A stretch of DNA of 25,140 nt. It comes from Candidatus Caldarchaeales archaeon. GTDB taxonomy: Archaea > Thermoproteota > Nitrososphaeria_A > Caldarchaeales > Calditenuaceae. The stretch lies in assembly GCA_039630085.1 (NCBI GenBank), contig JBCNVM010000014.1, positions 1 to 25,140 on the forward strand. Direction: 5' to 3'. A program made the position numbers and the translations under genes. Below are positions 1 to 186 of the stretch, piece by piece (positions within the stretch are counted from its first letter, which is position 1; the number at the start of each line of letters is the position of its first letter). The notes below the pieces were generated by a model, which was not told where the DNA came from, did no database searches, and worked only from the letters and a program-made list of their open reading frames with translations.

Positions 1-48
1 GGCTTCAGGCCGCTCTTCAGCAAGTACGCGAAGGAGCTGAAGAAGTGA
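1..48 (+). CDS. 3' end of an unidentified CDS (partial; ...GFRPLFSKYAKELKK*)
   Basis: Frame-1 codons with host-like GC3 ending in TGA at 46-48, immediately before the convergent tRNA. Too short to identify. Confidence 0.5.
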   Translation, partial: GFRPLFSKYAKELKK

Positions 49-50
49 GC

Positions 51-150
51 TGGTGCGGCCGCCGGGATTTGAACCCGGGATCTGCGGGCGAGCCCACCTA
101 GTTCACCGTACGGGGCCCCGCCGTCCTAGACCAGGCTAGACGACGGCCGC
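51..150 (-). tRNA. tRNA-Gly-like gene (predicted anticodon CCC at 112-114) with a 21-nt intron and encoded CCA; atypical anticodon loop
   Basis: The reverse complement folds as a cloverleaf: acceptor GCGGCCG/CGGCCGC + A + CCA, D arm GTCT-AGCCTGGTCTA-GGAC, anticodon stem GCGGG/CCCGC, variable loop AGATC, T arm CCGGG-TTCAAAT-CCCGG. The body resembles crenarchaeal-type tRNA-Gly. The isotype call is less certain than the tRNA call. Confidence 0.85.
90..110 (-). other. tRNA intron at the canonical 37/38 position (TACGGTGAACTAGGTGGGCTC)
   Basis: BHB motif: 4-bp helix GCCC/GGGC flanked by 3-nt bulges CG^T and TC^G, with a 2-bp inner helix AC/GT. Cutting after the 2nd bulge nucleotide leaves a 7-nt anticodon loop. 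Confidence 0.75.
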
Positions 151-174
151 CGCGTCTGACTGATGCCCGGGGTG

Positions 175-186
175 ATATTAACTTCA
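175..186 (-). promoter_or_regulatory. Putative BRE/TATA promoter of the tRNA gene
   Basis: GAAGTTAATAT on the minus strand about 25-35 nt upstream of tRNA position 1; an AT island in GC-rich DNA. Confidence 0.55.

Follow-up and report, generated by a model that had tools for sequence, protein, structure and literature searches.

A G32-C33 anticodon loop conserved in the tRNA-Gly(CCC) of Caldarchaeales: probably a working reader of GGG codons

Textbooks describe elongator tRNAs as having, almost without exception, a uridine at position 33 and a pyrimidine at position 32. Close to one end of the 25,140-nt stretch of Candidatus Caldarchaeales DNA analysed here (the window, from contig JBCNVM010000014.1) lies an intron-containing tRNA-Gly(CCC) gene whose spliced, 7-nt anticodon loop reads G32-C33-CCC-G37-G38 and so has neither. 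What is such a gene for? Its loop might be damaged, misread through a wrong choice of splice site, restored after transcription or put to some use away from the ribosome, or it might simply be the form in which this lineage decodes GGG. The gene turns out to be ordinary for its order and, judged from its sequence and those of its relatives, almost certainly specifies a functional tRNA. The parts of the gene are listed below by window position, with the basis for each in brackets.

51..150, minus strand: tRNA-Gly(CCC) gene of 100 nt, the encoded CCA lying at window 51-53 (ARAGORN; cloverleaf counts; orthologues pass Rfam RF00005)
111..150, minus strand: 5' exon, tRNA nt 1-40, with the 3' end G32 C33 C34 C35 C36 G37 at window 116-111 (sequence; 19-sequence alignment)
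115..116, minus strand: non-canonical loop residues G32 (window 116) and C33 (window 115) (sequence; 19/19 aligned orthologues; Logan contig of run X1)
112..114, minus strand: anticodon CCC, positions 34-36 (ARAGORN in intron mode; intronless orthologues)
90..110, minus strand: intron of 21 nt at the canonical 37/38 site, tRNA-gene nt 41-61 (cleanly missing in intronless orthologues)
92..95, minus strand: intron GGGC, partner of G32-C35 (window 116-113) in the 4-bp central helix of the BHB (pairing in the alignment)
51..89, minus strand: 3' exon, tRNA nt 62-100, with first base G38 at window 89 (sequence; alignment)
173..184, minus strand: TATA/BRE-like box AAGTTAATATCA, ~27 nt upstream of tRNA nt 1 (read from the sequence)

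The body of the molecule is standard. In tRNA coordinates, the acceptor stem of 7 bp (GCGGCCG/CGGCCGC, 1-7/90-96) is followed by U8, a 4-bp D stem (10-13/25-28) and a D loop containing GG (G18-G19); the anticodon stem pairs GCGGG (30-34) with CCCGC (63-67), the variable loop is 5 nt long, the T arm (CCGGG-TTCAAAT-CCCGG, 73-77/85-89) has five G-C pairs in its stem, and A73 and CCA are both present. The gene therefore has the 7/4/5/5-bp stems, the G18-G19 and the T loop TTCAAAT of an elongator cloverleaf. Measured against the canonical loop Y32-U33-NNN-R37, it departs at G32 and at C33 and conforms at position 37. The original prediction had listed all three residues as oddities, and for G32 and C33 this stands; G37, however, is no oddity in this genome, where many tRNAs have it, and C33 is confined to the two Gly tRNAs among the 39 ARAGORN calls.

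Annotation tools mishandle the gene. Run without its intron mode, ARAGORN reports one tRNA at 51-150 on the minus strand and labels it Arg(CCG), whereas in intron mode it reports Gly(CCC) with a 21-nt intron. Rfam at gathering gave no match anywhere in the whole window, and in E-value mode the best clan match over 51-150 was to tmRNA, at a sub-threshold 29.4 bits. The tRNA model falls below gathering on this gene because the intron breaks the model; intronless orthologues with an identical loop reach 55.2 and 51.2 bits on RF00005 (gathering 29), two of the three orthologue sources scored giving a match. Since default ARAGORN says Arg(CCG) and Rfam misses the gene, such genes are likely to be mis-annotated in MAGs.

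Could a different splice site yield a normal loop? Between the two strands of the anticodon stem lie 28 nt, made up of GCCCCG, the 21 nt of the intron and a single G. Four rows of the 19-sequence alignment come from intronless orthologues, and because these carry exactly GCCCCGG between the same stems, the splice register is fixed; in the alignment the intron appears as a clean insertion between G37 and G38. Enumeration of the 22 possible 21-nt excisions found none that gives a Y32-U33-R37 loop, in agreement with the earlier claim that no other register would do so. The BHB consists of two 3-nt bulges, C36-G37-U and U-C-G38, that flank a 4-bp helix. Across the 15 intron-bearing sequences the intron motif is GGGY and the bulges take the forms C36-G37-N and N-N-G38; 98.3% of the cells of the central helix are paired, with position 32 forming a G-C pair in 11 sequences and a G-U pair in four, which upholds the predicted pairing of the intron's GGGC with G32-C33-C34-C35. 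The outer helix of the BHB region is weak (70% paired). For the cloverleaf and the BHB helix together, 96.2% of the cells in the 19-sequence alignment are paired, against 34-51% with slid partners, a level reached by none of 500 shuffles; this pairing is far above chance. Both sides have changed in two anticodon-stem pairs and one T-stem pair. Stems, T loop, encoded CCA and BHB are as intact as had been supposed. The minimum free energy fold of the precursor is neither a cloverleaf nor exceptional (z -1.23), and is uninformative because the RNA is so G+C-rich.

Support for the sequence itself comes from run X1, an independent Logan contig of which spans window 55-146 with 0 differences. Nine sequencing runs were listed for the sequence, none of them of RNA. 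The AAGTTAATATCA box is a candidate promoter, and similar boxes also stand upstream of the genome's other tRNA-Gly genes. Two loci in the genome match the splicing endonuclease family PF01974, at 97.2 and 55.6 bits, and fit the heterotetrameric splicing endonuclease that has been reported for Ca. Caldiarchaeum subterraneum (PMC3082918). The genes around the tRNA gene are of the housekeeping kind: the downstream neighbour encodes a GNAT acetyltransferase, whilst upstream are a thymidylate-kinase-like gene and a gene for a Cbf5/TruB-PUA pseudouridine synthase.

The distribution of the loop was surveyed across the order by collecting every tRNA that begins GCGGCCGT in 71 sampled genomes and tallying the Gly(CCC) loops by hand. 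GCCCCGG (G32-C33) was found in 39 genomes belonging to three of the four sampled families (14 in f4, 17 in f1 and 8 in f3), a 40th, G016, being seen in a separate search of a phylum sample. The gene occurs both with and without its intron, and the survey contains many more intronless copies than the four that were aligned. A CCCCCGA loop (C32-C33) is present in 18 genomes, all of them f3, and four genomes have solely U33, namely three of f2 plus G374; ten of the 71 had no Gly(CCC) that fits the GCGGCCGT pattern. With its presence in 39 of 71 genomes, and with the loop invariant in 19/19 orthologues while the stems change on both sides, the description of this loop as maintained rather than decayed is borne out.

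In the relatives the odd-loop gene is the sole copy. Searched directly by pattern, G001, G002 and G005 yielded no U33 Gly(CCC), and neither did G024, an assembly of one contig and 99% completeness, in which the odd-loop gene is the only Gly(CCC) gene found. The sole doubtful match was the intron of a tRNA-Tyr. At the level of the order, the matches listed for a TCCCR...T-arm pattern were mostly tRNA-Leu variable arms, and the search was redone on five genomes. Within genus g12, a GCCCCGG Gly(CCC) on an f1-like backbone was noted in G362 (G362:C15:8907-8969), other members having CCCCCGA, and this gene hints at horizontal replacement of tRNA genes.

The other glycine tRNAs behave differently from one another. 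The Gly(GCC) loop is always canonical in the 71-genome survey. That of Gly(UCC) is canonical in most genomes of the order, but not throughout the genus of the window: it is GCUCCGG in the window's own genome (G000) and in G001, G002 and G005, and UUUCCGG is found in G003, G004 and G006. In G001, G002 and G005 the GCUCCGG Gly(UCC) shares its backbone with the CCC gene, from which a C34-to-U34 change sets it apart. No U33 Gly(UCC) was found by direct pattern search in G000, G001, G002 or G005, genomes with a completeness of 66-91%. The Gly(UCC) locus of the window's genome (L149, G000:C15:1409-1701) comprises a complete Gly(UCC) gene and, ~190 nt upstream, a 5' stub that has a TATA box to itself; the complete gene differs in backbone from the stub and has the loop GCUCCGG. 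A 108-nt Logan contig of the same locus type as the window gene, from run X2, has 6 differences from the window tRNA, and one of these, window 114 G>A, turns C34 into U34, so that UCC becomes the anticodon while the intron and the G32-C33 of the backbone are retained.

Named relatives, which place the order as Caldarchaeales (Aigarchaeota), carry the loop as well. Among the matches listed (at least 116 stretches) are Ca. Caldarchaeum subterraneum, Ca. Caldarchaeum sp., Ca. Calditenuis fumarioli, Ca. Terraquivivens tikiterensis, Ca. Pelearchaeum maunauluense and records named only Caldarchaeales archaeon or Nitrososphaerota archaeon. The Ca. Calditenuis record matches the window's genus in sequence type, and it is to Ca. 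Calditenuis that the window is closest. Other listed matches to the odd-loop pattern were mostly chance or bacterial tRNA-Arg(CCG), with stem UGGGG and loop CUCCGGA.

How far beyond the order does the pattern reach? In a phylum sample of 401 genomes, 39 matched the exact G32-C33 pattern and the true matches were all inside Caldarchaeales; two matching genomes outside the order have Arg-type CUCCGAG loops, not Gly. A second phylum sample comprised 301 genomes, 258 of them outside the order, and its figures come from the matches listed, many others being false. On that basis, C33 Gly(CCC) occurs in at least 45 of the 258 non-Caldarchaeales Thermoproteota genomes, from some 15 families, in the loop forms CCCCCAA, CCCCCGA, CCCCCGC, UCCCCAA and CCCCCA plus intron. 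Ten of these C33 loci were extracted (eight from outside the order and two of the order's C32-C33 type); all score 50-62 bits on the Rfam tRNA model, and ARAGORN calls all ten Gly(CCC), with C at 32 and 33. On these sequences the order-specific part is G32 together with G38, and C33 alone is much wider. The near-invariance of U33 on which the original prediction leant thus fails for tRNA-Gly(CCC), and the window gene is less singular than was implied, since many tRNA-Gly(CCC) genes elsewhere in the phylum also have C33. A scan of viral contigs for the odd-loop pattern returned 13 stretches, with no Gly-type tRNA among them.

Comparison with known tRNAs helps to define what is peculiar here. 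The canonical Gly(CCC) of family f2 (CUCCCGA or CUCCCAA) shares with the window gene the acceptor GCGGCCG, the D and T arms, A73, the CCC anticodon and mostly G37, but has C, U and A at positions 32, 33 and 38 where the window gene has G, C and G. The high-scoring C32-C33 Gly(CCC) of other Thermoproteota and of f3 (CCCCCAA, CCCCCGA, CCCCCGC) shares C33 beside CCC, but keeps a pyrimidine at 32 and mostly A38, whereas the window type has both G32 and G38 and in the genus extends its loop to UCC. Frameshift-suppressor tRNA-Gly of the sufD type has a run of four C in which an extra nucleotide makes an 8-nt loop and U33 is kept; the window gene has the four-C run, but in a 7-nt loop and with C in place of U33. 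In the cell-wall tRNA-Gly of Staphylococcus, G18-G19 is lost and the T stem is weakened, whereas the window gene retains GG in its D loop and has a T stem of five G-C pairs. Eukaryotic initiator tRNA-Met likewise has C for the U-turn uridine in a functional tRNA (PMC5041475), but it enters the P site directly, while the window tRNA is an elongator without initiator features. Two further clade-restricted elongators lack U33: Sulfolobales tRNA-Cys(GCA), with C33 (PMC7668247), and Candida tRNA-Ser(CAG), with G33 (PMC5041475). These serve other amino acids and anticodons, and neither is reported with a purine at position 32.

Grosjean and Westhof (2016; PMC5041475) name just two exceptions to U33, the C33 of eukaryotic initiators and the G33 of Candida tRNA-Ser(CAG), and Wolff et al. 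(2020; PMC7668247) describe an 'unusual C33' in Sulfolobales tRNA-Cys. The C. subterraneum genome has 46 tRNAs, 13 of them intron-bearing, and the available part of its report makes no remark on the Gly(CCC) loop (PMC3082918). The topic is not treated by Sugahara et al. (2012), where the term 'Gly' is absent, or by Fujishima and Kanai (2014), where U33 and C33 are absent. In the literature searched, mostly the main texts of open-access papers, C33 or G32 in archaeal tRNA-Gly was nowhere found described; within that literature, G32-C33 across Caldarchaeales, its spread to UCC and C33 in Thermoproteota Gly(CCC) are all undescribed.

The demand for GGG decoding is heavy. Codon counts from 779 long ORFs of the window's genome (335,722 codons) show that GGG makes up 33% of glycine codons and GGA 17% (together 50%), GGG alone amounting to 30 per 1000 codons at a genomic G+C content of 64%. 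Three C33 relatives have 51-62% G+C and use GGG at 14-23 per 1000, and two U33 relatives, at 26-27% G+C, use it at 4-5 per 1000. That C33 tracks high G+C and GGG use is suggestive over these six genomes. In G019 and G025, of f2, the one family of the order in which Gly(CCC) has the canonical U33, the tRNA genes stay G+C-rich even though G+C overall is 26-27%.

Taken together, the structure of the gene and its fixed splice register, the conserved loop, the lack of a second copy in relatives and the frequency of GGG codons point to a working elongator tRNA-Gly(CCC) that reads GGG and whose non-canonical loop is kept by selection, a reading we consider probable. All four glycine identity elements described for Aeropyrum pernix (C35, C36, C2-G71 and G3-C70; PMC9976931) are present in the window gene. 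Transcription would start from the gene's own TATA box, the archaeal splicing endonuclease would cut at the BHB formed by G32-C35 with the intron GGGC, and ligation of the exons would yield a 79-nt tRNA that is charged by GlyRS and reads GGG on the ribosome. The loop G32-C33-CCC-G37-G38 would then be a lineage-specific form under selection, not damage: C33 would belong to a wider habit of Thermoproteota tRNA-Gly(CCC), in which a C32-C36 run is common, and the Caldarchaeales would additionally have exchanged C32/A38 for G32/G38. C33 would presumably stay unedited at the U-turn position. Cross-loop pairing between C33 and G37 would probably be prevented by m1G37, since this modification, made by Trm5, would block a C33-G37 pair; the genome has two Trm5-family loci. 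As to why such a loop should be kept, we offer only tentatively, and as rather less than an even chance, that affinity is being tuned, the all-G:C codon-anticodon helix tolerating or favouring a less pre-organised loop. A counterpoint is that where a canonical Gly(UCC) exists, as in most families, wobble reading of GGG might make the CCC tRNA dispensable.

Should the decoding role hold, a whole archaeal order would carry G32-C33 in its GGG reader, as seen in 39/71 sampled genomes, and in one genus all GGA and GGG codons, ~4.5% of codons, appear dependent on tRNAs of this kind. With C33 common in Thermoproteota tRNA-Gly(CCC), probably in cultured species too, these archaea would offer a natural setting in which to examine what purpose the uridine of the U-turn really serves, and to see whether the make-up of an anticodon loop is adjusted to how strongly codon and anticodon pair.

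The locus is, in addition, polymorphic, with assembly branch points at window 77/78 and 116/117 that are the edges of an alternative, disrupted allele.

1..77, no strand assigned: 77 bases identical to contig C10:14195-14271 (assembly branch points at window 77/78 and 116/117)

In contig C10 (G000:C10:14195-15334) these 77 bases do not follow on from the remainder of the tRNA; before them stand 1,063 bases with 56% G+C, compared with 64% for the genome. Within this stretch begins a gene for a type IIG restriction-methylase (PADLOC, E 1.5e-11), the ORF of which had no Pfam or NCBIfam match. A second contig, C43 (773 bases, G000:C43:1-773), opens with tRNA nt 2-34, continues into A+T-rich DNA and further carries a complete intron-containing tRNA-Gly(CCC) with U32-U33, miscalled Ser(TGA) by ARAGORN, so that the genome does hold another Gly(CCC) gene. 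The X1 Logan contigs break at window 77 and 117, and the internal tRNA piece has a depth of 6.6 against 14-16 in the flanks. From the shared ends in C10 and C43, the X1 breaks at the same points and the drop in depth, two alleles seem to coexist in the source population, one being the intact gene with the odd loop and the other replaced by the insert and accompanied by a canonical-loop copy. The alternative allele retains tRNA nt 1-34 and 74-100 (window 117-150 and 1-77), nt 35-73 being replaced by foreign DNA of lower G+C. We infer that C43 and C10, which are not joined, are the ends of a single insert. Because C43 belongs to the window's genome and holds the U32-U33 Gly(CCC), a canonical copy is available in part of the population.

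This polymorphism bears on an alternative in which the odd loop is kept as an escape from nucleases that recognise the canonical anticodon loop of tRNA-Gly, GGG still being decoded. The nucleases might be those of homing-type cassettes that break and replace the tRNA gene, or anticodon nucleases or toxins that act on the RNA. Consistent with this, the locus itself has an alternative allele with a U32-U33 Gly(CCC) and a type IIG fragment, the Gly(UCC) locus consists of a 5' stub and an imported replacement, and the distribution is patchy, one g12 genome having a GC-type loop on a foreign-looking backbone. The gene that is broken here is, however, the odd-loop one, which is thus not immune to the insert, and either loop type is found on cassettes, the imported Gly(UCC) carrying GCUCCGG. 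Moreover, no nuclease that recognises the site was identified, and the occurrence of C33 over many families of the phylum favours a translational over a defensive cause. We hold nuclease escape to be quite unlikely; that the loop is an escape allele in a tRNA-Gly nuclease arms race, tolerated through the all-G:C GGG:CCC helix, is likewise unlikely, if a shade less so. Were escape the cause, the window population would present a conflict in progress, with the intact odd-loop allele beside one in which a defence-island insert has substituted a canonical-loop tRNA.

Alternatively, C33 might be edited to U33 after transcription, giving a normal U-turn. Where U is otherwise invariant, a C that is encoded and conserved is the classic signature of editing, and among archaea a precedent for C-to-U editing exists at position 8 of tRNA in Methanopyrus. 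Nevertheless, no cytidine/deoxycytidylate deaminase domain (PF00383) was found in the 90%-complete genome, by a search that was positive in 12 of 14 control genomes. Editing would also leave G32 and G38 abnormal, and the related U33 lineage shows that T can be encoded when it is needed. This idea, one of those first put forward for the locus, gained no support and is in our judgement very unlikely. Three THUMP loci are present in the genome.

The remaining proposals meet more direct difficulties. A non-ribosomal or regulatory glycyl-tRNA, for example the donor for a transferase, could dispense with loop rules that matter chiefly for the ribosome, and most families of the order do retain a canonical Gly(UCC) that could decode in its place. 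Against this stand the standard G18-G19, T loop and stems, the status of the gene as the only one for Gly(CCC) in relatives and the 50% share of GGG plus GGA among glycine codons. Four genomes of the genus share the loop in their UCC tRNA, leaving no canonical GGR reader, and because both GGR readers carry the loop in these genomes, a role purely as donor is highly improbable; here too the original suggestion gained nothing.

Equally hard to credit is the suggestion that C33-C36 serve together as a four-base anticodon or promote a +1 slip on GGG-G. GGG followed by G is indeed depleted in the window's genome, with an observed/expected ratio of 0.60 (2486 observed against 4154 expected), and GGG|GGG stands at 0.25. 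But the loop has 7 nt, and the depletion recurs in other frames and for C (NCC|CCN 0.60, CCC|CCC 0.25), GGA|G being enriched at 1.32. In relatives, sampled at 120-180 kb each, the ratio for GGG|G is 0.67 (40 observed, 59 expected) and 0.94 (25/27) in two with U33, both on small counts, and 0.51, 0.68 and 0.75 in three with C33. Because a U33 relative, the other frames and the C runs all show a like depletion, there is no slippage footprint specific to C33, and slippage on GGGG runs, as once envisaged, finds no support.

Drift of a redundant isodecoder towards a pseudogene, for which the two off-consensus loop positions and the failures of ARAGORN and Rfam might be cited, has next to no chance of being right and is refuted because the loop is conserved, staying the same in three families while the stems undergo compensatory changes, and belongs to the only Gly(CCC) gene found in a one-contig, 99%-complete relative, the putative promoter, the BHB and the CCA being intact besides.

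Extra copies of a Caldarchaeum-type tRNA-Gly(CCC) were also noticed on very small contigs (G003:C39, G003:C56, G026:C17 and G249:C56) in MAGs of other genera, with ten bases N in each; they may be mis-binned or mobile.
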